The notes under the pieces: model-generated
Database searches by the model: none
The model's input: only the letters and a program-made list of their open reading frames with translations
Told to the model about the DNA's origin: nothing
Translations under genes and position numbers: made by a program
DNA from: Thermoplasmata archaeon
Lineage (GTDB): Archaea; Thermoplasmatota; Thermoplasmata; Lutacidiplasmatales; UBA184
DNA: 64,000 bases
Reading direction: 5' to 3'
NCBI GenBank assembly: GCA_021809545.1
Contig: JAKAYL010000002.1
Span: 2,340-66,339 of the forward strand
Part shown: positions 28,207 through 44,963 of the stretch, piece by piece
How positions within the stretch are numbered: the first letter of the stretch is position 1
Layout of the letters: each line of letters starts with the position of its first letter

Positions 28207-31167
28207 TCACTCTATCATGGAGGTACTCGAAGGTACCCACACCAGCACGCCCGTGCCATCGGACACCGCGAAATCATACGAGGGGTCGGAGAAGCCGACG
28301 ATGAACGTCACATAGGACTGGGTCGTGGAGTTCCACATCGAGATCGCCGAGGCGTTCGGAACGAGTGCCGCGAGCGCCGAGGCGTTGGTCGCTCCGCTCA
28401 ACGACCAGCCCACATTGTTCCAGCCGCTCTGGAGGGAAAGCGCAGGGAAGAGGGGCCCCGTCGTGAGGTTCCCGGAGAGCGTCACGGTGAGCGCGAGGGA
28501 CACGTCTACCCACACCCCGCGTCCCGGCGCCACCGCGTACGTCGCTGCGTAGGCACCGCCTCCCGGATAGGAGACGTTCCCGGCTCCTGTCACGTTCTGA
28601 ACGGTGACGGACGTCGTGGCGGCCGAGGAGCCGTAGATCGCGGTCAGCACGTGGAAATACGCCCAGAGGGAGTAGCTCTCGTTCGTGGTGGGGGAGGCGA
28701 CCAGGTTCCATCCCACGTTCAGGTGGAGCGTCGTGTTGACCCCGGAAACGAGGAAGGTCTCCGTGACGAGGAGATGATCGGAGACGTTGTCCTTGACCAG
28801 GAGGTGAACGGTGTACCGACCCGAATTCCAGTAGGTGGTCACCGGTGAGTTGGGTCCTGTCAGACCGTTCGCCACGTTACCGTTGCCGAAGGTCCAGTTG
28901 TAGGAGACGTAGGTACCGCTGCCACCGGACACGAGGGCGTGGAAGGTGGCATTGACCGGCGGGTTCAGATTCCCGGTAAGCGTACTGTTGGTGAAACTTG
29001 CCCCGAGGTCGGGATAGATGAACAGCTTCAGCGAGACTGAGACCGATTCTCCCTGGGTATCGTTGACCGTCAGGTTGACCGACGTGTTGGTGACCACTGA
29101 GTAGGTCTGGAACTCCTGGTTGAGCGCCGAGGTCGAGAGACCCGCGACACTGAGCGTGTTGCCGTTACCGAACTGCCAGGCGAAGGTGAGGCCCGGCACA
29201 CCGCCCGTCACCGAGGCGTTGAAAGCGACGGAAAGGCTGACCTCCCCGGCGGTGCGGTTGGCGACCAAGGTGGGGGTTGCGAGCGCGTTGTAGACGGTCA
29301 AGGGGGCGGAGCTGGTCCCCACCACCCCGACCGAGTCCGTGACGTTCACCCGGAGGGTGTAGGTCCCGGCCACACCATAGATATGGGTCGTGGAGACATT
29401 GCACCCACTCGTGGTGCACGAGGCGAGGAAGAACGACCCGCCTCCAAAGGAGATGTTGAAACTGAATCCGGGAGTCCCGGTGCCTGCGGTCATCTGTGCC
29501 TCGACGGTCAGTACCTCGCCGACGTACGCTGACGAGGTTGCGGGCCCCAAGTATCTGTAGATCGTCAGGTTCACCACGGGGGTCGAGTTGACGACGAGGA
29601 GTCCCATCGAAGAGAGGTTGCTCGTGCCGACGCTGTCACCGGCCCGGGCCGTGGGATGGTACGTTCCGGCGACAGGGTAGGACACACCCGACAGTGTGTA
29701 GCTCAGGACGGAAGGCAGCGAGTTCGTGAAATTGCTGTACGTGCCTGCGCCGGTGGTGATGTTGAAGTAGAGGTAGGGCAGAGTTCCACCGGAAGCGGTG
29801 TCGGTCAGTGCGACCGGCGAATTGATGTCGGTGTAGGTCACGTTCGAGGAAATGGCGGCGTGGAGCGGAGCATTCACGGTGATCCCAAGGACCGCGGCCA
29901 CGGAGACGGCCTGGGCCGAGTTCGTGACGCTGTTGGTGGCGGTGTCGTTCAGGAGCAGGGTGACGATGTACGATCCCGAGGAGGCGTACGCGTGCGTAAC
30001 GGTGCAGATCGCGGTCGCCAAACACGTGGCGGTCTGCTTGGCCCCGTCCCCGTAGGCGAAGAAGAAGGTGTAGGCCGCACCACCCGAGCCGCCCTGGGCG
30101 TCCGCGGTGATCGTGACCGTCTGGCCCGCATCGGCGGGATTGGGGGTGGCGTGGAGGTCGATGAGATACACCCATACCGGCACATGGGAAGGTCCGGCCG
30201 TCTTTGCGGCGGAGTCCGTGACCGTGAGGTTCGCCTCGTAGCTCGCGTTGCTCGGGGCAGTGTAGGCGTGGGTGGTGGAGTTCGTGGCAAGGGAGGACGA
30301 GAGGGACACGCTAGCGCCGGCCTGTCCGAACTGGTAGTTGTAGGTGTAGGGTGCGGTTCCCCCGCTGACGGAGGCGGTGAACGACACCGATTGGCTCTCG
30401 TTGACGGCCTGGGGAGTGTCTGTGAACGAAGAGATCGAGGGGGGAGCGTTGGAGGTGATGGAGAGGCACGGGGTCTGCCAGGAGTCCCCGGCCGAGTCAT
30501 TGACGACGAGCTGCGCGCAGTAGGGACCTCCCTGGGAGTAGTTGTGATCGATGTACGGATGGGCTTGGTTCCATAGGCTGGGAGTGCCGTCTCCGAACTT
30601 CCAACCAAATACGTAGGAGCCGTTACCACCGAGGGTGGGGGCGGCGGTCCGGTTGTTGAAGAGGTGGACCCAGAGGGGGGCTTCCCCCGAGGTGACGTTA
30701 GCGGAGAGGTGGGGCGTCAGTTGCGGATAGACGAGGGAGAGGTTGAGCCAACTGCCCGGTTTTGACGTGACGACCGTCGTGGAGTTGGTCCCGGTGGCAT
30801 TGCCGTACTTGTGCGAGGCCCCGACCAGCGCATCGCCGTTCTTGTATCCGGGGGCGAGCGAGCTCACCTGATACTTGCCAGCGGAATCCGTCACTGCGGT
30901 CTGGGAGGCCGAAGGGTTGGTAGTGTCGTTGATCCATACCGTGACCCCGGCCGCGGCGACCGTGGAGGTATTGGTGTGGATCTTCACGTATCCATAGACA
31001 TAGTATGCCGGAGCGGGGGGCGGAGCTGCAATGCCCTCCGGCGAGACCTGGGAGGAGGCCGTGCTGGCCAGGAGCGCGGCGGAACCCGAGGAAAGGATGA
31101 GACCCCCCAGCACCACCGTAAGAATCAAAATATTCAGTTGTTCCCCAACACCCCAAGACCCCAGCAC
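28207..31167 (-). CDS. Secreted PKD-repeat protein with N-terminal 'YYVYG' and C-terminal 'GWN' domains
   Basis: Signal peptide and many PKD-like repeats; both terminal domains are shared with neighbouring genes. Start uncertain (open to 31254). Confidence 0.85.
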   Translation of the reverse strand: MLGSWGVGEQLNILILTVVLGGLILSSGSAALLASTASSQVSPEGIAAPPPAPAYYVYGYVKIHTNTSTVAAAGVTVWINDTTNPSASQTAVTDSAGKYQVSSLAPGYKNGDALVGASHKYGNATGTNSTTVVTSKPGSWLNLSLVYPQLTPHLSANVTSGEAPLWVHLFNNRTAAPTLGGNGSYVFGWKFGDGTPSLWNQAHPYIDHNYSQGGPYCAQLVVNDSAGDSWQTPCLSITSNAPPSISSFTDTPQAVNESQSVSFTASVSGGTAPYTYNYQFGQAGASVSLSSSLATNSTTHAYTAPSNASYEANLTVTDSAAKTAGPSHVPVWVYLIDLHATPNPADAGQTVTITADAQGGSGGAAYTFFFAYGDGAKQTATCLATAICTVTHAYASSGSYIVTLLLNDTATNSVTNSAQAVSVAAVLGITVNAPLHAAISSNVTYTDINSPVALTDTASGGTLPYLYFNITTGAGTYSNFTNSLPSVLSYTLSGVSYPVAGTYHPTARAGDSVGTSNLSSMGLLVVNSTPVVNLTIYRYLGPATSSAYVGEVLTVEAQMTAGTGTPGFSFNISFGGGSFFLASCTTSGCNVSTTHIYGVAGTYTLRVNVTDSVGVVGTSSAPLTVYNALATPTLVANRTAGEVSLSVAFNASVTGGVPGLTFAWQFGNGNTLSVAGLSTSALNQEFQTYSVVTNTSVNLTVNDTQGESVSVSLKLFIYPDLGASFTNSTLTGNLNPPVNATFHALVSGGSGTYVSYNWTFGNGNVANGLTGPNSPVTTYWNSGRYTVHLLVKDNVSDHLLVTETFLVSGVNTTLHLNVGWNLVASPTTNESYSLWAYFHVLTAIYGSSAATTSVTVQNVTGAGNVSYPGGGAYAATYAVAPGRGVWVDVSLALTVTLSGNLTTGPLFPALSLQSGWNNVGWSLSGATNASALAALVPNASAISMWNSTTQSYVTFIVGFSDPSYDFAVSDGTGVLVWVPSSTSMIE

Positions 31168-31305
31168 GCGGAATCCAGACTTCGTACTTCCACCCCTCTG
31201 GGCTGTTATGACATGGCAAGTATATAATCCGTTCTCAGGAATCCGCCGGGCCAAGGACGAGGGTCGGTCCCGTTCCGGGGGAACTTCTCCCCGTGAGGGG
31301 CCGGT

Positions 31306-31980
31306 CTACTTCCAGAGGAGAAGTCCGCCACGGAAGGCGTTCGCGTTGTTTCCCCGACGGCAACCGGACGGCAGACGGGGGAGCAAGCGGACGTTGCCGC
31401 CGCCGATCACCACATAGTCGGGTTCAAGGGCAGCCCGCAGGTCCTTGACGATCTTCCGGACCTCGGCCCTCCATCGGGAGGGCCCCAGATGTTTCAACCC
31501 GTGCTCCCCGAGATAGTCCTCGTAGGTCTTGTGGTGACGGTAGGGAAGGTGGCCGAGCTCCATCGGCTCAAGGACGCCCGAGACGATCATCGCGGTCCCG
31601 AGACCGGTGCCGAGGCCGAGAAAGAGCATCCGCCCTCCCTCGTAGCTGCCGAGAGCCTGCATCGCTGCGTCGTTCAGGAGCTTGACGGGGCACCCGAAGG
31701 CCTTCTCGAAGTCAAAACCGACCCACCCGTGACCGAGGTTCACGGGATCCTTGACCGGTCGACCGTGGAGGACGGGGCCCGGGTAGCCGATAGAGACCCG
31801 GTCGAAAGGGTGCCCCGCCGTCTGCGCCTTGAGTTCCTGGACCATCGCCCGGGCGGTCATGTGACGGCCCGAGCGGAACTTGACCGGCTCCTCCAACCCG
31901 GGTACCATCGCCTTGATGTGGGAGCCCCCCACGTCGACGACGAGCACCCGCTTTCCCTTGGGCCGCGGGGATGACTTCAC
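31306..31980 (-). CDS. ROK-family sugar kinase (polyphosphate glucokinase-like)
   Basis: VDVGGSHIK, GYPGPV, NDAAMQALG, LGLGTGLG, ELGHL and IGGGN. Confidence 0.88.
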   Translation of the reverse strand: MKSSPRPKGKRVLVVDVGGSHIKAMVPGLEEPVKFRSGRHMTARAMVQELKAQTAGHPFDRVSIGYPGPVLHGRPVKDPVNLGHGWVGFDFEKAFGCPVKLLNDAAMQALGSYEGGRMLFLGLGTGLGTAMIVSGVLEPMELGHLPYRHHKTYEDYLGEHGLKHLGPSRWRAEVRKIVKDLRAALEPDYVVIGGGNVRLLPRLPSGCRRGNNANAFRGGLLLWK

Positions 31981-32747
31981 GAGTCGACCTCGGCCGAGAG
32001 GGAGGGGAGCAGTTCCTGCGATCGGGAGGCCGCCGGGGCATCCAGATACCAGGTGAGGTTTCCTGCCGAACGGATTTGGCTCACGGGAAGGTTGGGATCT
32101 CCCGAGGGAAGGGACCGAAGGACCTGGGCCACGCGTTCCGCTTTCTCGGAACCCGTTACCAGTACACCGACCTCACGGGACGAGGAAAGGCACGTCCGGG
32201 TCAGGCTAACCCGGGGGACGAACGGAGGTTGGCCGGGATGGGGGACCGCCACCGTGCGACGGCCGGGCTCCCCTTCGAGCGGCTGCCCCGGGAAGAGGGA
32301 AGCCGTGTGCCCATCCTTTCCCATCCCGAGGAGAACGTAATCGAAGTCCGGGGTCTCGCTCCCTAGGGATCGGGAGAGCTCCTCCTCGTACCGCAGGGCG
32401 GCCTCCTCGGCCGTGGGTGCCTCACCGGGGATTCGATGGAGGTGGTCCCCAGGGACCGGGACCTTGTCCAGGAGATCCGCTCTCGCTTCCCGATAATTGC
32501 TCTCCGGGTCCTGGGGAGGCACACACCGCTCGTCTCCCCAGAAGACCTCGACCTCACCCCACGGAAGCCCTCCGGGTCCTTGCCCGGCGAGTAGCCGGTA
32601 GAGAGGGCGGGGCGTGCCCCCTCCGCTGAGCACCAGCCGGAACCTGCCCCGGGTGCTCCGTGCGGCGCGGGCTCCCTCGGACAGGTCCGCCGCGAGCCGA
32701 CGGCAGATCGCATCGGGATCCTTTGCGACCCGCACCCTCAGCGTCAT
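31977..32747 (-). CDS. pgl: 6-phosphogluconolactonase
   Basis: LSGGGTP, FWGDERCVP, SNY, LLGMGKDGHTASLFP. Confidence 0.93.
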   Translation of the reverse strand: MTLRVRVAKDPDAICRRLAADLSEGARAARSTRGRFRLVLSGGGTPRPLYRLLAGQGPGGLPWGEVEVFWGDERCVPPQDPESNYREARADLLDKVPVPGDHLHRIPGEAPTAEEAALRYEEELSRSLGSETPDFDYVLLGMGKDGHTASLFPGQPLEGEPGRRTVAVPHPGQPPFVPRVSLTRTCLSSSREVGVLVTGSEKAERVAQVLRSLPSGDPNLPVSQIRSAGNLTWYLDAPAASRSQELLPSLSAEVDS

Positions 32748-34201
32748 AGGTCATTCCACCGGTAGCCGAGTTCCCCCGTGAGTTGGGAAGATTCCGCCGG
32801 ACCCGCGCTGCCCGGCGAATACTTGTGGACCGGGGGAGGGTGGGAGAGGATAGCGTCGTAGAGGCGCCAGGACTCCTCCACCTCGTCGGCCCGGACGAAG
32901 AGGGTCTGGTCCCCGGAGAGCACGTCGAGGAGCAGCGTCTCGTAGGCGTCCCGGATCTCTCCGAAAACGTCCGAGTAGCGGAACTTCATCCGGTGGGTCT
33001 GGGTCCGGGTCGCCTCTCCGGGCACCTTGATCTCGAAGGCAAGATCGAACCCCTCGTCGGGCTGAAGGATGATGGAGAGCCGGTCGGGGTTCACCTCGTA
33101 CTCCTCCGATAGCTGGAAGAAGGAGATGGGGGGAGCCTTGAAGGTCACGGTGATCCGGGTGGACTTCCGGGGCAAGCGCTTTCCCGTCCGGAGGAAGAAC
33201 GGGACGCCGTGCCAGCGCCAGCTTGCGACCCGGAGACGGATCGCGGCATAGGTCTCCGTCGTGGAATCGGCCCTCACCCCGGGCTCCTCACGGTAGCCAG
33301 CGACGTCCTTGCCGTCGACCTTCCCCGAAGTATACTGCCCGAACACCACGTCCGATGGGCCGGGTCGTTCCACGGAGCGCAGGACCTTGACCTTCTCGTT
33401 GCGGATCGCATCCGCTTCGAAGGCCCCAGGAACTTCCATCGCGATGAGGGTCAAGAGCTGCGTCAGGTGGTTCTGCACCATATCCCGCATCGCCCCCGCC
33501 GTATCGTAGTACTCTGCGCGGCCCTCCACCCCCAGGGACTCCGAGACCGTGATCTGGACGTGCTCCACCCACTGCCGGTTCCAAAGGGACTCGATGAACA
33601 GGTTCGCGAAACGGAAGACCAGCAGGTTCTGAACGGTCTCCTTGCCCAGGTAATGGTCGATGCGGTAGACCTGTTCTTCCTTGAAGGATTGGTGGATGTC
33701 GCGATTGAGGGACTCCGCCGAGGCGAGGTCCCGCCCGAAGGGTTTCTCTACGACCAGGCGGGTCCACCCGGGTCCCCGGGAAAGGCCGGCACTGCCCAAT
33801 CCCTCCATCGCCGGGTGCAGCGCCCCCAAGGGCAGGGCCAGGTAGAGCACGCGGTTGCCCGGGAGCCCGCGGGCGGCTTCGATCTGCCGGATCCGCTCCG
33901 CCAAACGTTGATAGTCCTCCGGGCCCCCCTCACCGAGGCATTGGTAATGGAGGACCTCGCGGCACCACGGCTCGAGGCCTTCGGTCGTCCCGGCCTTCTC
34001 TTCGACGAGATGTTGGAGACCGAGCGCACGAAACTGATCCTCCGATATCGGTTTCCGGGCCGCCCCCAGGATGACGCTCGGTGAGACGATCTCCCCCTTC
34101 TGGTAGAGCTTGTGCAGGGACGGAAGCAACTTCCGCATCATGAGGTCACCCGTGGCGCCGAGGACGACGAAGAGGTGCGGGGGCGTGGTCGGCGTGCTCA
34201 C
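32744..34201 (-). CDS. zwf: Glucose-6-phosphate 1-dehydrogenase (bacterial type)
   Basis: GATGDL, VEKPFG, RIDHYLGKETVQN, RDMVQNHL and RTGKRL. GTG 34201 overlaps the gnd stop. Confidence 0.95.
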   Translation of the reverse strand: MSTPTTPPHLFVVLGATGDLMMRKLLPSLHKLYQKGEIVSPSVILGAARKPISEDQFRALGLQHLVEEKAGTTEGLEPWCREVLHYQCLGEGGPEDYQRLAERIRQIEAARGLPGNRVLYLALPLGALHPAMEGLGSAGLSRGPGWTRLVVEKPFGRDLASAESLNRDIHQSFKEEQVYRIDHYLGKETVQNLLVFRFANLFIESLWNRQWVEHVQITVSESLGVEGRAEYYDTAGAMRDMVQNHLTQLLTLIAMEVPGAFEADAIRNEKVKVLRSVERPGPSDVVFGQYTSGKVDGKDVAGYREEPGVRADSTTETYAAIRLRVASWRWHGVPFFLRTGKRLPRKSTRITVTFKAPPISFFQLSEEYEVNPDRLSIILQPDEGFDLAFEIKVPGEATRTQTHRMKFRYSDVFGEIRDAYETLLLDVLSGDQTLFVRADEVEESWRLYDAILSHPPPVHKYSPGSAGPAESSQLTGELGYRWNDL

Positions 34202-35112
34202 TTTCCCTGCTCCTTCTCGAACGCGTGGCCCCCGAACTTGTTCCGCATCATCGCCAGAAGGCGCTCCGAAAAGGGGTCGACCTCCCGCGAGCGGATCCGC
34301 GCCTCGAGCGCCAACGTGATGATGGGGACTGGGACATCGAGCGCCAGGGCCTCGGCCACGGTCCACCGGCCCTCTCCCGAGTCCGCCACCCAGGGCTTCA
34401 CTCCCTTCAGTTCCGGGCTCTCCGTCAGGATCTGCTCTACGAGCTCGAGCAGCCAAGAACGGACGACGCTGCCGTACCTCCAGATGCGGGCGATCTGAGC
34501 GAGGTCCAATCCGAACTCCTTCTTGGCCTCGAGGACCGAAAAACCCTCCGAGTAGGCCTCCATCAGCCCGTATTCGATCCCGTTGTGCACCATCTTCACG
34601 AAGTGGCCGGATCCGACGGGACCGACGTGGCCCCATCCCCGGTCCGCCGCCGGGGCAAGGGACTCGAGGACCGGCCGCAGCCGGTCCACGTCTTCCTTCT
34701 CGCCGCCAACCATCATGCTGTACCCCTCGGTCAACCCCCAGATGCCGCCGCTAGTGCCGACGTCGACGTACCGGCACCCCCAGGAGCGCACCAGCTCGGC
34801 CCTGCGGAGGGTATCCTTGTAGAAGGAATTCCCTCCATCGACCACGAGGTCCCCCGCCGAGAGGTTCGGCTTCAGCTGGGAAAGCACCTCATCGACCGCG
34901 GCGCCCGAGGGCACCATGAGCCACACCACCCTGGGAGAAGGGAGCTTGGCCATGAGTTCGGGGAGGGAGGCCGAGCCCACCATCCCCTTCGAAACAAAGC
35001 TGGCGACGAGTTCCGGCCGTCGAGCGAAGCCCACCACCCGGTGCCCTCCTTGGATCAGCCGTAGCACCATGTTCCCGCCCATCTTCCCCAGTCCTATCAT
35101 TCCTAGTTCCAT
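34198..35112 (-). CDS. gnd: 6-phosphogluconate dehydrogenase, decarboxylating (short type)
   Basis: GMIGLGKMG, DGGNS, DVGTSGG, GHFVKMVHNGIEYG, DSGEGRWT and RNKFGGH. Confidence 0.95.
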   Translation of the reverse strand: MELGMIGLGKMGGNMVLRLIQGGHRVVGFARRPELVASFVSKGMVGSASLPELMAKLPSPRVVWLMVPSGAAVDEVLSQLKPNLSAGDLVVDGGNSFYKDTLRRAELVRSWGCRYVDVGTSGGIWGLTEGYSMMVGGEKEDVDRLRPVLESLAPAADRGWGHVGPVGSGHFVKMVHNGIEYGLMEAYSEGFSVLEAKKEFGLDLAQIARIWRYGSVVRSWLLELVEQILTESPELKGVKPWVADSGEGRWTVAEALALDVPVPIITLALEARIRSREVDPFSERLLAMMRNKFGGHAFEKEQGK

Positions 35113-35142
35113 CGTTTTACCTCCTTAGTTGGATCCTCAAGA

Positions 35143-35751
35143 TCATACCACCCCGGCCGTGGCGAGCTCCTCCCCGAGCATCTCGGGGTTCCGCACCAGG
35201 AGCGTCTGCATCCCCAGACGGGAGGCAGCCGTAACATTCTCCGGGCGGTCGTCAAGAAAGAGGCACTCTCCGGGCGCCCGTTGGGTGACCCCCAGGGCCA
35301 CGCGGAAGGCTTCCGGTTCCGGCTTCCTCCATCCCGTGTAGCACGAGCTGAAGAAGAGGGAGAAGAACTCCCGTAGCCCGAACCGCTCGATACGGAACTC
35401 GTTCAATTCCTTCGACTCATTGCTCAGGGCAGCCATCGTGTAGCGGCCGCTCCGGGCCAGCTTGCGCACGCTTTCCAACGCCGAGGGATGAGGGGCAGAC
35501 TGCCCGAAGAAGAACTCGCGGAAGTCTTTTTGGGAGAGGGTGGAAGCATCCGTGTCGAGAACCTCCCGCAGGTAGTCCTCAAGGGAGAGATGACCGCGTT
35601 CGAAGGAATCCACGAGACGGGCATGCCGCGCCTCAAAGCGAACGGGATCCAGGCCAAACCGCTGGCAGGCCTTGAGCCGACGGTCGCGGTCCCAAGCATT
35701 GGAAAGCAGGACCCCACCGATGTCGAAGAAGAGCGCGGAGATCTCAGCCAT
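35143..35751 (-). CDS. HAD-family phosphatase
   Basis: FFDIGGVL, LSN, RKPEP and FLDDRPENV. Confidence 0.88.
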   Translation of the reverse strand: MAEISALFFDIGGVLLSNAWDRDRRLKACQRFGLDPVRFEARHARLVDSFERGHLSLEDYLREVLDTDASTLSQKDFREFFFGQSAPHPSALESVRKLARSGRYTMAALSNESKELNEFRIERFGLREFFSLFFSSCYTGWRKPEPEAFRVALGVTQRAPGECLFLDDRPENVTAASRLGMQTLLVRNPEMLGEELATAGVV

Positions 35752-38491
35752 GGAGCAGCTCCCGGAACGATCCGAGCCCCTGCGCCGACTCACGGCCGAT
35801 ATCGATCCGCAAGATCCGCCGCCCCTTCGACTGGAGGGCCAAGTAATCTCCGACCGATTGGGCCTGCACGATCTGTCCGAACGAGTAGTTTTCCCCGGGG
35901 ACGGGTTCGTCCTCCCCCGGAGGGTCGACGATCTGCAGGAAGACCCCCGTGGGCGGGCCCCCCTTGTGCAATTGTCCCGTCGAGTGCAAGAAGCGGGGAC
36001 CGTAGCCCACCGTGGTCGCCAGGTGGTACCGTAGGAGAAGATCCCGGCGGATCCCTTGAAGGAGAGCATCGTTGGACGGTTCGGGGGGAAGGAAGGCCTG
36101 CAAGGCGATGTAGTCTCCCGCGTGCGTCGTTCCCATCAGCGCTTGGAAGGCGGAACGCAAGGGAGCGGGCTCGTTGACCGGAACTGTGCGCACGGCTTCC
36201 CCGCGGTCCTTGCCTGGGCTCGCATCCATGGCTTTGCGGGCCAGTTGTTTGGCCAGCTCAACGTCCGGCTGGTCGTAGGGATCGATCCCCAGGACGGTAC
36301 CGGACAGTGCGACGGCCACCTCCCACCGGAAGAACTCCTGTCCGAGGTTCGCGAGCTCTGAGAGACGTACCCGCACCACGGGATGGCCCGCGGTCTCGAG
36401 GGCCGAGAGGTGACTCTCCAAGGCTTCCGTTCCCCCTTCCGGGCCGGAGAACGAGACGAAGACACGATCGGGGCCGTAGCACTCGGGACCCGCCAGGGGC
36501 TCGTCGACCACGGGGAGGATCCCCCGCCCGTTCTTCCCAGTGCTCTCCGCGAAGAGCTGCTCCAGCCAGACCGGGAATGCCGCCAGGCGCCCGGTGCCAT
36601 AGAGGGTCAGCTTGTCCCGCCCGTGCAAAGCGAGTTCCCCGAGGGCGGCTCCGAGCCGGATCCCTGGGTTCTCTTCGGGAGGGACGCAGGCGGCACATCC
36701 CTCGGCCATGGCCCATGCCTGGCCGAGCACGCGCCGCACGTCGACCCCCGTGAGCGCCGCAGGCACGAGCCCGAAATGCGTGAGGGCCGAGTACCGGCCT
36801 CCCACCGTGGCGACCGCGTGAAACACTTTCCGGAATCCCTGTTCCGTGGCCAGGGTCGAGAGGGGCGTGCCCGCGTCCGTGATCGCCACGAAGTTGTGGT
36901 CGGGAGAGGAGGACTGCTTCCCGACCTTCTCCCGGAAGTACCGGTAGAAGGACAGCGTCTCGAGAGTGGTTCCCGATTTGCTGGAGACCAGGAAGAGCGC
37001 GGCGGCAGGGTCGATGGATGCGGCCAGGGAGCGCACCGCCAGCGGATGCGTGCTGTCGAGGACGGCGAGAGAGGGAAACCCCGGACGGGATCCGAACACT
37101 CCTTGAAAGACCTTGGGGGCCAGGCTCGAACCGCCCATGCCCAGGAGGACGATGTGCTTCGTCCCTTCCTGCCGGACCTCGTCGGCAAACCGCTCGAGAG
37201 TGGTCAGCTCCTCCTGCATGTCCGCCGGGAGATGGAGCCAGCCGGTCCGCTCCCGCACATCCTTCGCAGGAGCTGCGGGCCAGAGCGACGGGTCCGGGTG
37301 CCAGAGTCGAGCGGAGACCTGCTGGGAGCCCCACGTCTTCAGACGCTCCTCAACGGTCGCGGAATAAGTTCCAAGATGGAGGGAGAGGGGATCCTCTTCC
37401 TCGGTGAGGATCTTCCGGCGCTTCGCCTCCAGCGCCTCCAAGAGCAGTCGGTAGGATTCCGCGAAGTCGGCGAGTCCCTCGACCTGGAGACGCTCGAGGA
37501 TCGGTTCGAGCTCGACACCCAGGGCTTCCGTCTGGCGAAGGATCCTCTGGGCCTCTTCCAGTCCCGACTCCACGGCGCCCGACTGCAGGATGCCATGGTC
37601 TTCGAAGGCCGAAAGGGTCCGGGGGGGGATGGTGATGACCGTCTGGGGACCGATCAGCCCTTCGACGTAGTAGGTGTCGCGGCCGGAGGGGTCCTTCATG
37701 CTCACGCTGGCCCAGAGGATGCGCTGCGGCCGTCCTCCCCCCGCAGTGCCCGAGGGGCCCGAAGCGAAGATCTCCCGGTACCGTTGGTAGATGCCCTTGG
37801 CGTACGCCACGGCGACCTTTCCCTTCACCTCGGCGATGCGGGGATCCGTCCGGCCGTCTAGTTCGCGGGCAACGGCCGCGTCCACGCGGCTCACGAAGAG
37901 GGAGGCCACGGAAGCGACGGGATGGGAAGTCCCGGAATGGGAGCGTCCGCGGAGGTAGGCCTGGGCCACGGCCTCGTACTGAGATCGGGAGAAGAGCAGC
38001 GTCGCGTTGACCGGGATCCCTTCCCCGACAAGTCGTTCGAGGGCCATCGCCCCTTCCTTGGTGCTGGGCACCTTGATCATCACGTTGGGACGGCCGACCG
38101 AATCCCACAGATGGTGGGCGGCCCGCACCGTGCCCTCGACATCGTGCTCGAGGCCCGGGGCCACCTCGAGGCTCACATAGCCGTCCTCTCCCCCGGTCCG
38201 GTCGAAGACGGGGCGCAGGAGGTCCGCGGCTTCCCGCACATCCTCGACCGCCAGCCGCTCGTACAGCACCGAGGCGGGGAGGGAAGGGTCCTTGGAAAGG
38301 AGGGCGCGGAGACCCTCATCGTAGTCCTTGCTACCGACGATCGCCTTCTCGAAGATCGTCGGGTTGGACGTGACGCCGAGGATCCCCTGGGAGATCTGCT
38401 GCACCAACTCTCCGCTGCGGACGGAGCCTCGTCGGATGTAGTCCAGCCAGGGGGATTGTCCTGCGTTTCGGAGGGCGACCAGGGACGTCAC
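35744..38491 (-). CDS. tal-pgi: Bifunctional transaldolase/phosphoglucose isomerase
   Basis: [23 protein letters not shown] and SLFVSRVD; then [37 protein letters not shown] and [10 protein letters not shown]. Confidence 0.93.
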
Positions 38492-40500
38492 GGCACACCC
38501 TCCGACGAGGGACCCAACAGTCTCTGTATCACCTCCTCAACATGTGAGGCGCTCATTCCCAAGTGCTCCGCTACCTTGTTGCCGGGGCCTGAGGCACCGA
38601 ACCGATCGATCCCCAGTGCGACTCCCCGGTCTCCCACGTACCGGGACCAACCCATCGTGGAGGCCGCCTCCAGGGAGACGCGGGGGAGGTGGGGGAGGAG
38701 AACGGCGCCACGATACTCGGGCGTCTGCTCCTCAAAGAGTTCCCACGAGGGCATCGAGACGACCCGGAGGCCGATCCCCCGGGTGGCCAAGTTCTTCTGG
38801 ACCGTGAGGGCGAGCACGACCTCGGAGCCCGTCGCCAGCAGGACCGCGCGGGGTGCTGCCCCTGCGGGTTCCGAGAGGACGTACGCGCCGCGGGCCACCC
38901 CTTCCTGGGCCTTCGACCCGGTCCCTTCGAGCACGGGAAGCTTCTGTCGCGAGAGAACGAGGGAGACCGGCCCCTTCCGCTCCAGCATCACCCTCCATGC
39001 GGCGGAAACCTCGTTCGCGTCGGCCGGACGGATCACCGTCATGCCCGGCATCGCGCGCAAGCTGGCGAGGTGCTCGATGGGCTGGTGGGTCGGACCGTCC
39101 TCCCCTACCCAGACACTGTCGTGCGTGAAGATGAAGAGGGAATGCACTCCCATCAATGCGGAGAGCCGAAGGGAGGGCCGGGCGTAGTCCGAGAAGACGA
39201 AGAAGGTGGCACCGTACGGGAGCAGCCCCCCGTGGAGCGCCATGCCGTTGACGATGGCTACCATAGCATTCTCGCGTACCCCGAAGTGGAGGTTGCGGGC
39301 CCCCTCGGTCTTCCCATCGAAGCTACCCATCCCCTTGAGGAGTGTCTTCGTGGACGGGGCCAGATCGGCCGAGCCGCCGATGAGGAGCGGAACGGCGGCC
39401 GCCACCGCATTCATCACCTTCTCGGAGGCCTCGCGGGTCGCGAGCGGGGGATCGCCCACTGCAAAGGCGGGCAGCGCTCGCGACCAGTTTTCGGGGAGGC
39501 GGCCTCCGATCGTGCGCTCGAACTCCTCCGCCTCGGATGGAAAACGCGACTGGTAGGTGGAGAAGAGCTCGTCCCAGGCCGCTTCCGCCGCGCGCCCGCG
39601 TTCCAGGGCCTTGCGCAAATGGGTGCGGGCCTCCTCGGGAAAGTAGAAGGGGGGTTCGACGGGGAAGCCGAGAGCGGTCTTCGTGGCCCGTGTGTTCTCC
39701 GGGCCGAGCGGCTCCCCATGGGCTTCCTTGGTGTCCTGCCGGGGGCTCCCGTATCCGATGTGCGTGCGGACCTGGATCAGGGTGGGACGGTCCCGACGTG
39801 AGGTGGCCTGCTGCAGGGCGGCATCGAGCGCTTCGACGTCGTTCCCGTCGGCGACACGAAGGACCCTCCAGCCGTAGGCCTCGAACCGGGCCGGAACGTT
39901 CTCGGTGAAGGAGAGCTCGGTCGATCCCTCCAACGAGATGTGATTGTCGTCGTAGAGATAGACCAGCTTGCCGAGCCCCAGATGGCCGGCCAGGGAGGCC
40001 GCCTCCGAGGCGATCCCCTCCATGAGGTCCCCGTCCGAGACGAGGCCATAGGTGAAGTGGTCGGTCAACGGGAATCCTTCGCGGTTGAAACGGGCGGCGA
40101 GGTGCTCCTCCGCAAGGGCCATCCCGACGCCCATGGCGAATCCCTGACCGAGCGGACCGGTGGTCGCTTCGACCCCGGGGGTGTGCCGATATTCGGGATG
40201 TCCGGGAGTGCGGCTGCCCATCTGACGGAACTGCTTCAGGTCCTCGAGGGTCAGGTCATATCCCGTGGCGTGAAGAAGGGCATAGAGGAGCGCGGACCCA
40301 TGGCCCGCAGAAAGGACGAACCGATCCCGGTTCCACCATCGGGGGTTGGCAGGGTTGTGCCGTAGCCGTCGGTCCCACAGCACGTAGGCCATGGGGGCGG
40401 CGCCGAGGGGAAGCCCCGGGTGTCCCGACCGGGCCTGCTCCACGGAGTCCACCGCCAGGAAGCGGAGGGAGTTGATGCAGAGCTGATCGAGATCACTCAT
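38488..40500 (-). CDS. tkt: Transketolase (single-chain bacterial type)
   Basis: [41 protein letters not shown] and GEDGPTHQP. Confidence 0.96.
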
Positions 40501-40611
40501 CGTGCCTATGTCAAGCAGCGACCGTATTTCTACTTGCCGAGGCGTGCAGAGGAATGCGATCCACCGGGCGAAGGCGACGCGTGCCCTGTCCGGGGTACGG
40601 ACCCTCGGCCC

Positions 40612-41181
40612 TCAGTAGGGAGTTCCGCACTTGTTGCAGAACTTGCTGTCGGGGGAGACCCTCGGGGAGAAGCACTTGGGGCAGCTTCCGGTAGGGACCG
40701 CGGCGGCAGCGGGCGAACGAGCGGGCACGTTCGGAGAGGAAACCTCGGTGGGCACCACCGAGGGTTCGGGAGCGCTCCCTGCGAGGGGGACGAGCGCCTC
40801 CCGGGCCCGGTCGAGGAAAAGCCCCGGTACGATCCCGCCGAAGAGGAAGGCGAGGAGGAGACGGCTCCCCCCGAGCACGGAGCGGCTCTGCGCGTAATTC
40901 CTCTTCTTCCAGAGGAGCAGTTGGCCGGCGCGGACGGTGAACGCCAGGTAGAGGTCCACGGCACCGCCGATGGCCAGAAGGCCGAGCGCGACGACGGGCA
41001 ACCCTTCCCACGGGAAACGCGGGGTGACGTAGATGGTGTACCCTATCCATGCGGCGAGGACAACGAGAACCGCCCCGATACCACCGGCGGCCGCGGTCAT
41101 ACGCTTCAGTTCCTGATCCGCCACCTCGGCCTCGACCGGGAGCGGTTCCTGCCTTTCGCTGCTCATGCTTGCTGTCCTCAT
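40612..41181 (-). CDS. Membrane protein with C-terminal zinc ribbon
   Basis: About 3 TMs; CPKC...FCNKCG; GAGGAG before ATG 41181. Confidence 0.75.
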   Translation of the reverse strand: MRTASMSSERQEPLPVEAEVADQELKRMTAAAGGIGAVLVVLAAWIGYTIYVTPRFPWEGLPVVALGLLAIGGAVDLYLAFTVRAGQLLLWKKRNYAQSRSVLGGSRLLLAFLFGGIVPGLFLDRAREALVPLAGSAPEPSVVPTEVSSPNVPARSPAAAAVPTGSCPKCFSPRVSPDSKFCNKCGTPY

Positions 41182-41188
41182 CTTCTCC

Positions 41189-41743
41189 TCACAGCGGGCA
41201 CGTGTGGGCGTGACCGTCCATGGCGTAGACCGTAGTGAGGAATGTGCTGCTGCCATCGAGGATGACTCCCTCCTGCCAGGCAACGAAATTGATCCCGTAC
41301 CCGAAGCTCAGGCAATCGTACTCGGAGGCTGTGAGCCAGGTCGAGTTGACCGAGGCCCCGTCCAAGCCGCGGGCGAGGCTGTAGTTGAGCAGGTGGACGG
41401 GTTCCGAGAGCTCGATGTACGAGCTCAGGGGAGAACCCCCGGAGACGTTCGCCGTGGCGACGACGAAATCCGACGTGACCTCGATCGAATAGGCGTGCCC
41501 CGAGATCTCGGCAGGGAGTTGGACCCCGACGAAACTATGGTTGTAGAAGAAGGGCTGCGAGACGCTCGCCCCCACCCCTTCGATACGGTCGATGTGGTCC
41601 GCCACGAGCGAGGCCACGTTCCCGAGCCCGATCCCGAGCGCATAGTTGTTCTCGGCCGAGGCAAAGATCACGTCGGCAGTGACCACGAGGCCCAATACCA
41701 GGATCGACACGATGCCGAGGGAGATCGCCCAATCGTAGATCAT
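41189..41743 (-). CDS. Pilin-like/accessory protein with N-terminal hydrophobic helix and no charged leader
   Basis: MIYDWAISLGIVSILVLG followed by an amphipathic helix; ATGA-coupled to the upstream pilin. Confidence 0.65.
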   Translation of the reverse strand: MIYDWAISLGIVSILVLGLVVTADVIFASAENNYALGIGLGNVASLVADHIDRIEGVGASVSQPFFYNHSFVGVQLPAEISGHAYSIEVTSDFVVATANVSGGSPLSSYIELSEPVHLLNYSLARGLDGASVNSTWLTASEYDCLSFGYGINFVAWQEGVILDGSSTFLTTVYAMDGHAHTCPL

Positions 41744-42279
41744 GGGAGGATCTTGACCTCCACGAAGGTCTTCGCGTAGGTCGAGGGGACCCCGCAGAGG
41801 GGCGAGCCCAACTCCACCTTGGTGAAGCCGAGGGTGTAACTCCCGGACGGGAGCGTGAGCGGGAGCGAGGTGGGATGGCCCGCCTGGCAGGAGAAGTTGC
41901 TCGCGTAAACGAGGGTCGCCCCGTTGTCGAACTGCACAAGGTACGAATGCCCCCCGATGAGGAACGTCACGTACGTGGCGTTGGGGTTGAGAGTGCTACC
42001 CTGGAAGAGCGCGGCCCCCACCAGGATCTTGCCCTGCTGGTTCACCGTGACTCCGAGGGTGAGGGTCGTGTTCGCGCCCCCGTCGTAGGTCTCCACCACG
42101 GTATTCGCGATCGAGGAGGCCTGTTGCTGGAGCGCCAAGAATTGCTGGCTGGTGAGGTAGGTGGCGAGCGCGCTCACCATGATGGGGATGACGATGAGCA
42201 GGATGATCACGATGATGATGAGCTCGAGAGGGACGTCGGTGACCCCCCGGCGGTTGCGCCGCGCGTGCCTTCCCCTCAT
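41740..42279 (-). CDS. Type IV pilin-like protein (class III signal peptide)
   Basis: MRGRHARRNRRG|VTDVPLELIIIVIILL; ATG 42279 overlaps the upstream TGA. Confidence 0.8.
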   Translation of the reverse strand: MRGRHARRNRRGVTDVPLELIIIVIILLIVIPIMVSALATYLTSQQFLALQQQASSIANTVVETYDGGANTTLTLGVTVNQQGKILVGAALFQGSTLNPNATYVTFLIGGHSYLVQFDNGATLVYASNFSCQAGHPTSLPLTLPSGSYTLGFTKVELGSPLCGVPSTYAKTFVEVKILP

Positions 42280-42776
42280 GTGACGATCACCAGCGAGGTC
42301 GAGTAGGTCTGCGAGGAGGAGCCACCCAGGGCTCCCGGGGGATCGTAGAGGGCCGAGATGGGGAGGACACAGCTGTTCGAGTGCGCCGGGAGAGTCGGGA
42401 TCGGGAGGAGGAACATCGCGGTCCCGTTCGAAAGCGTGTGCTGGATCTGGTCGATCCCGCACCCGTCGACCGTCACCGTGACCCCGCCTAGGGTGCCTCC
42501 GGACTGGGCCCAGGCCGTGGCGAGGAAGAGGAGGGGCTGCTTCCAAGCCCCGAAGACGTTCTCCCCCGCGAGAGAGCCCGAGGGGGTGGCCAGAGACAGG
42601 GAGTTGAGCGTGTGGGCACGGGAGTAGACGAAGAGCTCGAGGAGTATGCTGGTCCCGACGGCGATGAGGAGCATCGAGATGAGGAGGGTGAGCGGCAATC
42701 CCTCGAGGACCCCCCGGCGGCTGCGAAAGAGCCGGGCGCGGCGCCCGTGGCCCGATGATCCCCTTCTTCCCGACAT
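42276..42776 (-). CDS. Type IV pilin-like protein (class III signal peptide)
   Basis: RSRRG|VLEGLPLTLLISMLLI followed by a small Ig-like domain. Confidence 0.8.
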   Translation of the reverse strand: MSGRRGSSGHGRRARLFRSRRGVLEGLPLTLLISMLLIAVGTSILLELFVYSRAHTLNSLSLATPSGSLAGENVFGAWKQPLLFLATAWAQSGGTLGGVTVTVDGCGIDQIQHTLSNGTAMFLLPIPTLPAHSNSCVLPISALYDPPGALGGSSSQTYSTSLVIVT

Positions 42777-42794
42777 GCTTTGCCTGCCTCCGTC

Positions 42795-44909
42795 CTAACC
42801 GATGACGCTCACCACATAGACGCCGAGGGCCGATGCGAAGAGGAACACGAGTACGGCCACCCAGAGGTACTTGCCCAACATCATGCGGAGCGAGATGGGG
42901 TCCCCGCCCGACTCCACGCCCGTCGTGAAGAAGCTGATGACCGCCACCATCTCGATGAGGAAGGATCCTAGAACGACGAAGAAGACGGGGATGGACACGG
43001 AGAGCAGGCCGCCCGCGATCGTGTTCGACAGCAGCAGGTAGAGCGCTCCCGTCATGCCGAGCACCATGGGCGAGAGGCTGAAGGCGGTGGCCTTCATCAT
43101 CGAGGTCGTGGGCTTCAGGGCGTTCGTCAACGTCCGGTCGACCTGGCGGATCTGGTTGAGATAGTCGGCCATGGGCACCACGGTCCGCCCCACGGCCTCG
43201 GGTCCCTTCGAGGTGGCCTCAAGGAGGGCGCGCATCGAGACCTTGACGAGGCGCGAAGGATAGAGCTCGATGAGGCCCGGACCCTTGGTCCCCCCGAAGA
43301 TGACCTGGTCAGCCGGGGCTCCCGTCACCCGCATCGAGTGCACGATCCTCCGGAAGAAGACGGCGACCTCGGCGCCCGACATCGACTCCGCGGTCCGCTC
43401 GAGGGCGCGTTCCATCGACATCCCTTCGGTGATCCGGTTGCCCACCTGGAAGAGGGCGTCCGGGATCTCGTTCTCGAGCTTCTGGAGGGCGCGCATCGCC
43501 GCGTACGAGTCCCGGTTGTTCAGGAAGAAGTAGGTGGAGAGACCGCAGCCGACGCCTGCGACCAGCGGGAGGACGTAGAGCGGTTCGAAGACCGACCCGA
43601 TCCATCCCGCGTAGAACGGGTAGGCAACGGCACCGACGAGAGCGCCGACGAGGAGGGAGAGAAGGGTGACCGTCGTCGCGGGGAGCGTCTCCTGCACCTC
43701 CCCGGGATGGGGGGGCTTGATCGTCCCCGGTCGCTTCGAGAGCACCTGGGCAGAGTAAAGGTAGGCCATGAGGGGGAAGAGGACCCCGATCAAGAGGATG
43801 AACCCCACATTCACGACCAGGATCTCGGACGGAGGCAGCGGCTGGGAGGCCAGGGACCCCGTGGTCCCGGTCGCCTGGAGCGCGGAGGGGGCCCCGAAGG
43901 TGTTGAGGTTGGCGAGGAAGATGAGCGGGAGCATGGCCCCGATGATCATGGGAAGGAGGATCCCGAAGGCGAAGAGCACGGTCGTCGGGCTCTGCATGGC
44001 CACGGCGAACTCCTCGATCTTCTTCTGCGTGCTGGTGAGGATCGTCTCGAGCCCCTTCTCCAGGCTCTTGGCAAGACCCTCGTCAGTGTGCTCCATCGGG
44101 GCCATTCGGATGGAGTACATCGCCCGCTTGAAGTCCTCGTTCCAGTGCCCCCACTCGTCGGCGAAGGACATGAAAGCGTCCTCGATGGAGGACTTGACCT
44201 TGGTGTGCACATCCCAGAGGACCTTCTTCAGGCTCCCCGCCAGCGGCTCGTCCACGTTCTCGCTGGCGTAGCGCACGGCGAGGTCGAGGGAGGGGTTGAG
44301 CCGCATGGACATGACCATGTAGTAGACGGTCTCCGGGGCCCGTCCCAGGGCCTGGACCCGCAGGCGGTTCGAGAGCCAGAAGGGGTAGTTGTAGAGATAG
44401 ATGTAAACCAGGAAAGGAACGGAGATGATGCTGACCGCGAGGAGACCGCTGAAGATCCCTATGATGAAGGCGGAGAGGGCCAGGGTCACCACGAAGACCG
44501 CGAGGAGGACGGCGGCGGTGAGGATCGTGCCGACGATCGCCGTTGCGTACACCTCGTGGGGTGTCACGTCGAGGCCGGAGAAGTACAGCTCGCGCTTGAG
44601 CTGCACCTGGTTCACCACCTTGTCGAGGTAATCCACCCTCTGCTTGAGGGACCTTGCCCGGGACTTCAGGCGTCGCATCTCCTGGGTGTGGGAACCCTCG
44701 AGAAGCTCGGTACGTGCGAGGGAATCCTCCACCTCCCGAAGCTCGGTCCGGGCCTTGTCGAGCCGCTCCGCCTGAACCTTCCGGGATTCCTCCGAGGCCA
44801 GCTTCCGGGAGTACCCCTGGCCGATGTGATGGCACAACCAGACGTACCAACCGCCCTCGGCCTCGTCGTCCATGACGGGGTCGGGGGCCCCCGGTCCGTT
44901 CATGGGCAC
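42795..44909 (-). CDS. Type II secretion F/TadC-like membrane platform protein (two domains)
   Basis: Two repeats of soluble helical domain plus TMs (APETVYYMVMSMRLNPSL; EIPDALFQVGNRITEGMSME); adjacent to the ATPase. Confidence 0.85.
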   Translation of the reverse strand: MPMNGPGAPDPVMDDEAEGGWYVWLCHHIGQGYSRKLASEESRKVQAERLDKARTELREVEDSLARTELLEGSHTQEMRRLKSRARSLKQRVDYLDKVVNQVQLKRELYFSGLDVTPHEVYATAIVGTILTAAVLLAVFVVTLALSAFIIGIFSGLLAVSIISVPFLVYIYLYNYPFWLSNRLRVQALGRAPETVYYMVMSMRLNPSLDLAVRYASENVDEPLAGSLKKVLWDVHTKVKSSIEDAFMSFADEWGHWNEDFKRAMYSIRMAPMEHTDEGLAKSLEKGLETILTSTQKKIEEFAVAMQSPTTVLFAFGILLPMIIGAMLPLIFLANLNTFGAPSALQATGTTGSLASQPLPPSEILVVNVGFILLIGVLFPLMAYLYSAQVLSKRPGTIKPPHPGEVQETLPATTVTLLSLLVGALVGAVAYPFYAGWIGSVFEPLYVLPLVAGVGCGLSTYFFLNNRDSYAAMRALQKLENEIPDALFQVGNRITEGMSMERALERTAESMSGAEVAVFFRRIVHSMRVTGAPADQVIFGGTKGPGLIELYPSRLVKVSMRALLEATSKGPEAVGRTVVPMADYLNQIRQVDRTLTNALKPTTSMMKATAFSLSPMVLGMTGALYLLLSNTIAGGLLSVSIPVFFVVLGSFLIEMVAVISFFTTGVESGGDPISLRMMLGKYLWVAVLVFLFASALGVYVVSVIG

Positions 44910-44963
44910 CCCTCCTTGGGGACTCCCGGGACGGCCGTACCTGCGGATCGCTCGACCACGGAT

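Follow-up and report, generated by a model that had tools for sequence, protein, structure and literature searches.

A bacterial-type pentose phosphate operon carried by one family of uncultured Thermoplasmata

How does an archaeon come to carry, as one compact operon, enzymes of a pathway that archaea are held to lack, and what might it use them for? To our knowledge, the textbook picture is that archaea have no canonical oxidative pentose phosphate pathway (PPP) and make their pentoses either by the ribulose monophosphate (RuMP) route or, in haloarchaea, by means of a non-homologous dehydrogenase. The locus that raises this question lies on contig JAKAYL010000002.1 of the Thermoplasmata archaeon assembly GCA_021809545.1, of which we analyzed a stretch of 64,000 nucleotides (positions 2,340 to 66,339 of the forward strand; hereafter the window, to whose numbering coordinates refer unless a contig is named). 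At 31306–40500 of the window, seven codirectional genes on the minus strand encode, in order, a transketolase (tkt), a transaldolase/glucose-6-phosphate isomerase fusion (tal-pgi), a HAD protein, 6-phosphogluconate dehydrogenase (gnd), glucose-6-phosphate dehydrogenase (zwf), 6-phosphogluconolactonase (pgl) and a ROK-like kinase. We confirm that this operon is real, that it consists of seven genes, that it is of bacterial type, and that it resides in an uncultured archaeon of the class Thermoplasmata. An initial annotation of the sequence had proposed that it was transferred en bloc from bacteria and that it supplies a cyclic, NADPH-producing route from glucose, an interpretation that is partly supported by the work described here. 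On balance, we consider it likely that the operon entered the host family from bacteria once, long ago, and that it has since behaved as an accessory cassette, with losses and probable movement within the family.

All seven genes are located where the initial annotation had placed them, overlapping or nearly touching one another. Taking as the criterion for family membership a whole-protein score above the curated NCBIfam cut-off, six of the seven proposed identities hold, the weaker case being the kinase (see below). The first operon gene, tkt (38488–40500), encodes a transketolase of 670 amino acids that scores 856.5 bits against TIGR00232 (cut-off 682.25) and has three Pfam transketolase domains in one open reading frame (ORF). 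With its N, pyrimidine-binding and C domains on one chain, it is of the bacterial full-length type, unlike the split archaeal form, and it is the sole Transketolase_N match in the host genome. The tal-pgi product (35744–38491, GTG start; 915 amino acids) scores 1064.1 bits against the fusion model NF007080 (cut-off 712), with residues 1–913 aligned to model positions 2–944 of 949 and the Pfam domains TAL_FSA at residues 15–353 and PGI at residues 444–654, such that a single polypeptide spans the domains of both activities. The HAD-IA family phosphatase (35143–35751; 202 amino acids, Pfam Hydrolase and HAD_2) scores 51.9 against TIGR01509 (cut-off 29.4), with a weak score of 39.8 against the glucose-1-phosphatase model NF006991 (cut-off 295). 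Gnd (34198–35112; 304 amino acids) is a short-form decarboxylating 6-phosphogluconate dehydrogenase that passes both NF007161 (438.5 bits, cut-off 271) and TIGR00872 (364.9, cut-off 297.2). Zwf (32744–34201; 485 amino acids) scores 547.0 bits against TIGR00871 (cut-off 400.6), with E values of 1.7e-50 for Pfam G6PD_N and 1.5e-110 for G6PD_C, its nearest solved structure being 9EMM (E 1.9e-137). Finally, Pgl (31977–32747; 256 amino acids) scores 195.2 bits against TIGR01198 (cut-off 124.45) and matches Pfam Glucosamine_iso with an E value of 9.8e-68, and the small ROK-like sugar kinase, encoded by the last gene of the operon (31306–31980), has 224 amino acids.

Four of the gene junctions (tkt/tal-pgi, gnd/zwf, zwf/pgl and pgl/kinase) are 4-nucleotide overlaps, the tal-pgi/HAD junction is an 8-nucleotide overlap, and HAD and gnd are separated by a gap of 30 nucleotides. 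The longest ORFs of the HAD gene and of zwf extend 5′ into the preceding gene; we chose the starts ATG 35751 and GTG 34201, respectively, on the grounds that the Pfam domains set in immediately thereafter and that the resulting coupling by short overlap resembles that at the other junctions. Read from the sequence, the intergenic region 5′ of tkt (40501–40611, minus strand) is 111 nucleotides long and holds an AT-rich box, AAGTAGAAATAC (minus strand, 40524–40535), 24–35 nucleotides ahead of the tkt ATG, which may be an archaeal TATA-type promoter of the operon. We note also a TTATATA box on the minus strand at about 31228–31236, just 3′ of the last operon stop and 5′ of a gene for a PKD-domain protein, a hint that the latter gene is served by a separate promoter, with its true start lying 3′ of TTG 31254.

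The host is archaeal, as had been assumed: its genome (1.96 Mb in 83 contigs, 99% complete, 0.03% contamination) contains a small-subunit rRNA gene that matches the archaeal model end to end (1484.6 bits) and stays archaeal when the clan models compete, and the operon contig itself encodes an archaeal-type S-adenosylmethionine (SAM) synthetase (13531–14730; PF01941, E 5.7e-164), 17.5 kb from the near end of the operon. The nearest Zwf proteins with a named source in a large protein collection are likewise labeled "Thermoplasmata archaeon". The initial annotation had seen neither a compositional break nor mobility genes, and both observations stand, in that the GC content is even (0.64–0.67 in the operon, 0.62–0.65 in the flanks) and no mobility gene is present among the scanned flanking ORFs of the window. 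Furthermore, the relative synonymous codon usage (RSCU) of tkt, tal-pgi, gnd, zwf, pgl and the kinase gene correlates with that of the genome at 0.90–0.96, placing these six genes in the 25th to 85th percentile of 634 long reference ORFs, with the short HAD gene lower, at 0.80.

Across genomes, the operon is a trait of one family and not of the class: when related genomes were checked it was found in this one family, which is not the pattern of class-wide vertical inheritance. Zwf, searched for with PF00479, is present in 22 of 35 other genomes of the host family and in six of its seven genera (21 of 34 genomes if G027, which is unpublished, is set aside), and in none of 24 genomes that represent 17 other families of the host order and class. 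The Tal-Pgi query matched in 22 of the 35 family genomes, with one weak Pgi match among the 24 genomes from outside. The gene order tkt–(tal-)pgi–(HAD)–gnd–zwf–pgl was seen again, within the reach of the contig, in every one of 20 loci compared, which come from 20 further genomes of the family, and the operon is thus not an assembly artefact. About two thirds of the sampled family genomes keep the operon, and there are close relatives without it. Of 401 genomes sampled evenly across the phylum, eight have Zwf, five of these eight being in the host family, including the window's own; outside the family the count is three of 392, one of these being a 31-bit fragment. In the class Nitrososphaeria, such a Zwf is present in two of 201 sampled genomes. 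The earlier statement that canonical Zwf is rare in archaea is therefore borne out, also by a 2015 review of finished genomes, the available part of which reports glucose-6-phosphate dehydrogenase (G6PDH, EC 1.1.1.49) in 66% of bacterial genera and in 0% of 83 archaeal genera, and 6-phosphogluconate dehydrogenase in 27% of archaeal genera (PMC4518329).

The two full-length Zwf sequences of the phylum from outside the host family are 38–39% identical to that of the window and are placed elsewhere in the tree. They come from Thermoplasmatota of different families (loci L115, G274:C33, and L116, G118:C15) and are probably separate acquisitions. One Nitrososphaeria locus (L140, G537:C7:37900-57300) carries tkt, fused tal-pgi, gnd and zwf, arranged as they are in the window, with products that are 62, 48, 58 and 49% identical, respectively; at a second locus labeled Nitrososphaeria (L038), pgi adjoins zwf.

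The phylogenies of Zwf, Gnd, Tkt and the Tal domain, with roots set by midpoint or by rows from other bacteria, agree with the bacterial type claimed for these genes, as in each of them the family clade nests among bacterial sequences. Among the matches listed, the nearest Zwf proteins from outside the family are bacterial, at 49–57% identity, and come from Salinivenus, Salinibacter, Bryobacterales, Gemmatimonadales, Nitrospiraceae and Acidimicrobiia. Four of the ten nearest Zwf clusters at 50% identity carry organism labels, which comprise Bacteroidota/Rhodothermales, Gemmatimonadota and Chamaesiphon (Cyanobacteria), and the remaining six are labeled with an enzyme name or with no name at all. 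A Zwf-type match is present in 42 of 61 genomes of the order that holds Salinivenus and Salinibacter, about half of these being 52–57% identical; where we call this order Rhodothermales-like, the term derives from the NCBI labels of two loci, L036 and L037. In a quick Zwf tree of 100 rows, the 19 family rows form one clade (support 99) inside a 26-row clade (100) that also holds bacteria and one Nitrososphaeria archaeon. In a more careful tree of 53 rows, the 16 family rows (100/98) are sister (97/87) to six sequences of the Salinivenus order, and this group lies inside a 43-row clade (100/100) together with a further 15 sequences of that order, sequences of four other bacteria and the Nitrososphaeria pair, this pair being on a separate long branch. 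In the careful Gnd tree, a 30-row clade (100/99) comprises the family (97/97), 12 sequences of the Salinivenus order, one of Gemmatimonadales and one of Nitrososphaeria. The Tal-domain tree places nine family rows (94) as sister to Salinivenus (87), and in the Tkt tree the family (97) stands among bacterial full-length transketolases.

The direction of transfer that these trees support would be from bacteria into this archaeal family. For zwf and gnd, a Rhodothermales-like source is well supported by the phylogenies, and a single donor for all the genes of the operon is likely; on the Salinivenus contig L036, tkt, tal-pgi, gnd and zwf stand in the window's order. That the acquisition is old, as had been suggested, is supported by the single family clade found for each gene together with the host-like codon usage.

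A number of observations tell against this account of the origin, above all where the exact donor is concerned. The labeled bacteria were taken from a collection scan as the best 80 of at least 600 stretches, and the bacterial sampling is limited by that scan. The Gnd tree is without the bacterial sister seen for Zwf, and the node in question (95/72) is drawn open. The Tal tree contains a single sequence of the Salinivenus order. In the Tkt tree, the rows nearest to the family are the Nitrososphaeria archaeon at L140 (88) and then an operon-linked second Tkt of Salinivenus (90), with 22 housekeeping transketolases of the Salinivenus order in another clade (95). The cassette may thus already have moved about among bacteria prior to its arrival in archaea, and the ultimate source of tkt and tal-pgi may differ from that of zwf and gnd. 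Consequently, the en-bloc part of the earlier proposal stands for zwf and gnd, for which it is well supported, and less so for tkt and tal-pgi, for which there are fewer bacterial sequences and moderate support, and for which the nearest Tkt sequences are operon-linked copies.

As a separate observation, the Salinivenus genome G448 (loci L036 and L164) encodes two transketolases, one a housekeeping enzyme that groups with its order and the other an operon-linked enzyme that groups with the archaeal copies, which suggests that the cassette is an import in the Salinivenus bacterium too.

Turning to what the operon would do, glucose-6-phosphate would be formed from fructose-6-phosphate by the Pgi domain, or possibly from glucose by the small kinase. 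Zwf, Pgl and Gnd would oxidize it to ribulose-5-phosphate and CO2, yielding two reduced nicotinamide cofactors (probably NADPH). The combined action of Rpe, RpiA, Tkt and Tal would bring the carbon back to fructose-6-phosphate and triose phosphate, and Pgi would then close the cycle by converting fructose-6-phosphate to glucose-6-phosphate. The operon was initially described as complete, which goes too far, as rpe (219.6 bits) and rpiA are encoded elsewhere in the genome. We note in passing that rpiA is split over two contig ends (G000:C63:9-296 and C51:10152-10502), which suggests that contigs C63 and C51 of G000 abut.

The motifs of Zwf are in keeping with its identity. Across an alignment of 27 sequences (A1; numbering of the window protein), GxxGDL, EKPFG, RIDHYLGKE and His245 are invariant, the invariant positions being G15, G18, L20, E152-K153-P154, R180-E188 and H245, and R49 is nearly so. 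We take GxxGDL to be the dinucleotide-binding motif and the histidine to be catalytic, and Arg49 presumably corresponds to the arginine that binds the 2′-phosphate of NADP+ in studied enzymes. In Gnd, the first strand is followed by GFARRPE, which we take to be an NADP-type sequence.

In the window's Tal domain (residues 1–360 of Tal-Pgi), the IKVPST stretch, which presumably holds the Schiff-base lysine of transaldolase, is intact. The end branch of this domain is long, at 0.95 changes per column, against 0.03–0.2 for eight other family Tal domains; the end branches of the window's Zwf, Gnd and Tkt are 0.22–0.33, and no other Tal domain of genus g1 was available for comparison.

The initial annotation also had the route start from glucose, and this is a part of its functional proposal that goes beyond the data, since the kinase is a small ROK-like protein for which a glucokinase role is that of a candidate. 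It scores 30.2 bits against Pfam ROK (PF00480, cut-off 22.9), over residues 14–136 and model positions 3–143 of 294, and it falls below the cut-off of TIGR00744 (27.8 vs 260). In the Protein Data Bank, it matches 3LM2, a "putative kinase" of 226 amino acids, over nearly its whole length (E 1.4e-77), an entry whose title gives no assigned substrate, and more weakly 1WOQ, a polyphosphate/ATP-glucomannokinase (E 1.6e-8), with the NDA and ELGH motifs aligned; it is about 40 residues shorter than the latter. Classical ROK kinases have a cysteine-rich zinc motif after ExGH; the 224-residue kinase has no such motif, its two cysteines lying outside any sequence of this kind. Of the 20 relatives' loci, 12 have the kinase gene beside pgl, in one orientation or the other, and ROK-like genes occur within the PPP clusters of the bacterial loci L050 and L106, such that the protein may be a glucokinase that feeds glucose into the cycle. 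The HAD gene is in the corresponding position in 10 of the 20 relatives' loci, and HAD genes lie within the PPP clusters of the bacterial loci L089, L106 and L111.

As to the place of the cycle in the metabolism of the host, neither a PF00365-type nor an ADP-type (PF04587) phosphofructokinase was found in the 99%-complete genome, PfkB-type enzymes not having been searched for, nor was a 2-keto-3-deoxy-6-phosphogluconate (KDPG) aldolase (PF01081), the non-phosphorylative Entner–Doudoroff route likewise not having been searched for. With no match to either enzyme, the cyclic PPP may be the main route by which this organism oxidizes hexose phosphates, beside a retained RuMP-type pentose route: 3-hexulose-6-phosphate synthase (HPS) scores above its cut-off (222.2 vs 200) and a protein like 6-phospho-3-hexuloisomerase (PHI) below it (134.7 vs 160), and the persistence of the two indicates that the ancestral pentose route was not simply replaced. 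The search scopes just given count against this assignment. So do the facts that the catalytic activities of Zwf, Pgl and Gnd are predicted functions, that NADP+ is probably the cofactor of Zwf and Gnd by a weak argument from single conserved arginines (the two models that Gnd passes, NF007161 and TIGR00872, name different cofactors), and that the kinase scores 58.8 against a cut-off of 250 for the polyphosphate-glucokinase model NF045942.

These considerations leave room for a biosynthetic role, in which a peptide-eating aerobe would turn gluconeogenic fructose-6-phosphate into NADPH and pentoses, and the kinase and HAD protein would act on other sugar phosphates. The contig and the window are rich in secreted peptidase and PKD proteins, the kinase is below the curated glucokinase-type cut-offs, the Pgi domain ties the operon to fructose-6-phosphate, and a phosphoribosyl pyrophosphate (PRPP) synthetase is encoded on the same contig at 6988–7902. 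In addition, another Thermoplasmata order is described, in the available part of the source, as peptide-based with gluconeogenesis (PMC9038741), although membership of our host in that order is not shown. Set against this role, the kinase aligns with the polyphosphate/ATP-glucomannokinase through NDA and ELGH, its gene adjoins pgl in more than half of the relatives' loci, as counted above, ROK-like genes recur in the bacterial clusters L050 and L106, and the lack of a phosphofructokinase or KDPG aldolase match leaves the PPP as the candidate hexose route. We give the biosynthetic role rather less than an even chance.

The history of the operon after its entry can be followed through the enzymes that it duplicates. 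Split archaeal Tkt alone (separate N-half and C-half ORFs, at most 46% identical to the query) is found in all 24 genomes from outside the family and in nine family genomes; among the 35 family genomes, 25 have a full-length bacterial Tkt, five have both types and one has neither. In the window's genome, which has the full-length bacterial type only, the split Tkt is gone, and in general, where the operon is present, the bacterial Tkt often stands in for the ancestral split enzyme. Nine of the 22 family Tal-Pgi copies are fused, and 13 are Pgi only, starting near residue 351–378 of the fusion; one genome of the same genus as the window's (G003) has neither Tal-Pgi nor the HAD gene between tkt and gnd. 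Because the Tal domain of the window groups with the other fused copies, the fusion dates back at least to the ancestor that genus g1 shares with the fused-copy clade, and Tal has been lost several times. Such repeated loss is plausible because a second, small Tal/FSA protein is encoded elsewhere in the genome (TIGR00875, 326 vs a cut-off of 246).

Several individual genomes deserve mention here. In G018 (locus L033, G018:C5), zwf and tal-pgi each match as two pieces in different frames, and in G035 (L027, G035:C104) tal-pgi matches as two overlapping pieces, reflecting either frameshifts on the way to loss or assembly indels. G012 has two full-length bacterial-type Tkt proteins (C52 and C84; 65 and 57% identical to that of the window) and one Zwf match, at a contig edge. 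G017 (91% complete) and G025 (83%) have a full-length bacterial-type Tkt and no Zwf or Tal-Pgi match, for which either a leftover of the operon or a gap in the assembly could account.

Set against a tree of SAM synthetase from 30 family genomes, a single gene that serves as our proxy for the species tree, the presence and absence of Zwf takes eight changes, a number as low as which was obtained in 228 of 500 shuffles, and such patchiness contradicts strict vertical descent after one entry. For instance, G018 has the operon and G008 does not, although both are five-contig assemblies and sisters in the marker tree. The operon trees match the genus labels for g1, g3, g6 and g7, but they put g7 together with g4 and g6 and do not keep g4 in one piece, in conflict with both the marker tree and the genus labels. 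Both the unstructured pattern of presence and this disagreement speak against a simple form of the account favored here, and together they indicate that the later history was not plain vertical descent.

This raises the possibility that the operon, having entered once, spread mainly by lateral transfer within the family as a mobile accessory cassette rather than by vertical descent with loss. In addition to the contrast between G018 and G008 and the eight changes on the marker tree, the g7 operon nests in the g4/g6 operon clade (100/98 for Zwf), yet the marker tree joins g7 to g3 and g2, and G021, of genus g4, carries a "basal" operon type otherwise found in g5. The flanks are also not conserved between genera: no gene that flanks the operon in the window is found within 10 kb of it in the 20 loci, save for weak PKD matches. 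Across the family, most of the shared flanking "clusters" are alternative-frame ORFs over the operon itself, and the sole large flanking protein that is shared occurs in five loci of g1 and g3, the window's own flanks being unmatched. On the other hand, no mobility genes were seen next to the operon in the window, operon trees and genus labels agree within g1, g3, g6 and g7, the species-tree proxy is a single gene, and loss alone can yield patchiness, with the split archaeal Tkt persisting in genomes that are without the operon. Spread chiefly by lateral transfer therefore appears doubtful to us, if well short of implausible; one old entry followed by an accessory existence accommodates these data with loss explaining much of the patchiness and some transfer of the operon within the family being likely.

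The two remaining alternatives are both highly improbable. That a bacterial fragment was joined to, or binned with, an archaeal genome might be thought of because the genes are bacterial in type, but the archaeal-type SAM synthetase is encoded on the operon contig, 20 further genomes of the family, assembled separately, have the operon as well, codon usage is host-like with contamination of 0.03%, and the family sequences form their own clade, 52–57% identical to the nearest bacterial Zwf among the matches listed. That the operon was present in an early archaeal ancestor and was lost almost everywhere else could draw on the two Zwf-bearing genomes among 201 of Nitrososphaeria and, as far as the available part of the report goes, on Hodarchaeales and Kariarchaeaceae (bioRxiv 10.1101/2024.07.04.601786), but is opposed by the absence of Zwf from all 24 sister-family genomes and its count of three in 392 across the phylum, by the nesting of the family clade in bacterial clades for four genes (Zwf, Gnd, Tal and Tkt), by the separate long branch of the Nitrososphaeria Zwf pair, and by the unrelatedness, at 38–39% identity, of the other two full-length Thermoplasmatota Zwf sequences.

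The surroundings of the operon were initially described as surface and pilus genes, which is reasonable insofar as the flanks encode PKD-domain surface proteins, a pro-kumamolisin-type peptidase and a TadA/FlaI-like ATPase beside small ORFs with N-terminal hydrophobic helices; no pilin family was matched among the flanking ORFs. The secreted proteins of the flanks (22370–31254 and 40612–58874) include PKD-domain proteins of 790, 1121 and 1015 amino acids, one of them with a pro-kumamolisin activation domain. The putative pilus locus comprises the TadA/FlaI-like ATPase, a weakly matching T2SSF-like membrane protein, and small ORFs in whose products a hydrophobic helix comes after a basic N-terminus, and beyond it lie further PKD proteins of 1107 and 1392 amino acids. 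The PRPP synthetase mentioned above, a ribose-phosphate pyrophosphokinase and as such a consumer of ribose-5-phosphate, is encoded on the minus strand about 23 kb from the operon. Near-identical sequence, or parts of it, is contained in at least 20 sequencing runs. The 20 runs listed come from nine studies, on mine tailings, mine drainage, sediment and soil, and seven of them may be the source itself. One metatranscriptome run contains a fraction of 0.59 of the sampled words of the 9.9-kb stretch, which points to possible expression; against this, the match may reflect DNA.

Of the known systems, the closest are the bacterial tkt/tal-pgi/gnd/zwf/pgl clusters (Salinivenus L036, and loci of Chloroflexota, Acidobacteriota, Dormibacterota and Gaiellaceae), which share with the window the enzymes, the NF007080 fusion, the short Gnd and the gene order. 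The nearest of these to the window operon is L036, with 56% identity for Tkt, 48% for Tal-Pgi, 59% for Gnd and 55% for Zwf. The window differs from these clusters in its archaeal host and in having no gap of the size of OpcA between zwf and pgl, and its HAD and small-kinase genes are unmatched in the loci fetched from the Salinivenus order. The archaeal RuMP route (HPS and PHI), operating with a split transketolase, also supplies pentose phosphates, and its HPS is kept in the window's genome; this route yields no NADPH and releases formaldehyde, not CO2.

Haloarchaea are alike in being archaea that oxidize glucose-6-phosphate to ribulose-5-phosphate, and they too have a short-form 6-phosphogluconate dehydrogenase; the source cited for their oxidative PPP is reportedly Pickl and Schoenheit, 2015. 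They differ from our host, which uses a canonical Zwf that passes TIGR00871 together with a canonical Pgl. The haloarchaeal pathway (Azf and GndA) relies on a short-chain, non-homologous G6PDH that is described, in the available part of the source, as being of archaeal origin (PMC12525153). Among Asgard archaea, Hodarchaeales and Kariarchaeaceae are reported to have an oxidative PPP, to judge from the accessible part of the preprint (bioRxiv 10.1101/2024.07.04.601786); these are likewise aerobic, uncultured archaea, of a different phylum, and are likened to our host by report and not by sequence. Within the Thermoplasmata, the model genome of one order is stated to be without the enzymes of the oxidative PPP, in the available part of that paper (PMC9038741), and the portions at hand of the main texts on two other candidate orders are silent on the pathway (PMC9239135, PMC9287336). 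Full-text literature searches returned no paper describing this operon in the host family, with the proviso that the supplements of Thermoplasmata genome papers may list the genes; several apparent matches proved to be instances of the wording "non-oxidative pentose phosphate" and were discarded.

The process that our data point to, namely that mesophilic aerobic archaea acquire metabolic genes from bacteria, is a known one, and what the operon adds is a new lineage and not a new kind of system. Going further, one may tentatively envisage tkt/tal-pgi/gnd/zwf(/pgl) as a self-contained mobile "NADPH cassette" that would have crossed between the domains on two or more occasions, reaching this Thermoplasmata family and a few Nitrososphaeria, that circulates within the family, that supplants the split Tkt, and that would serve as the sole route of hexose-phosphate oxidation in aerobic archaea without a phosphofructokinase; taken as a whole, we would rate this idea at nearer one chance in three than one in two. 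What the finding does mean is that a whole family of uncultured Thermoplasmata carries a bacterial pathway as one operon, contrary to the textbook picture, and that versions of Zwf, Gnd and Tal-Pgi from an archaeal host are now at hand for expression and assay. Furthermore, with its presence and absence of the operon among near relatives, the coexistence of the operon with HPS, and the stepwise replacement of the split Tkt, the family provides a ready comparison set that could show how an imported module of central metabolism becomes integrated and displaces native enzymes.

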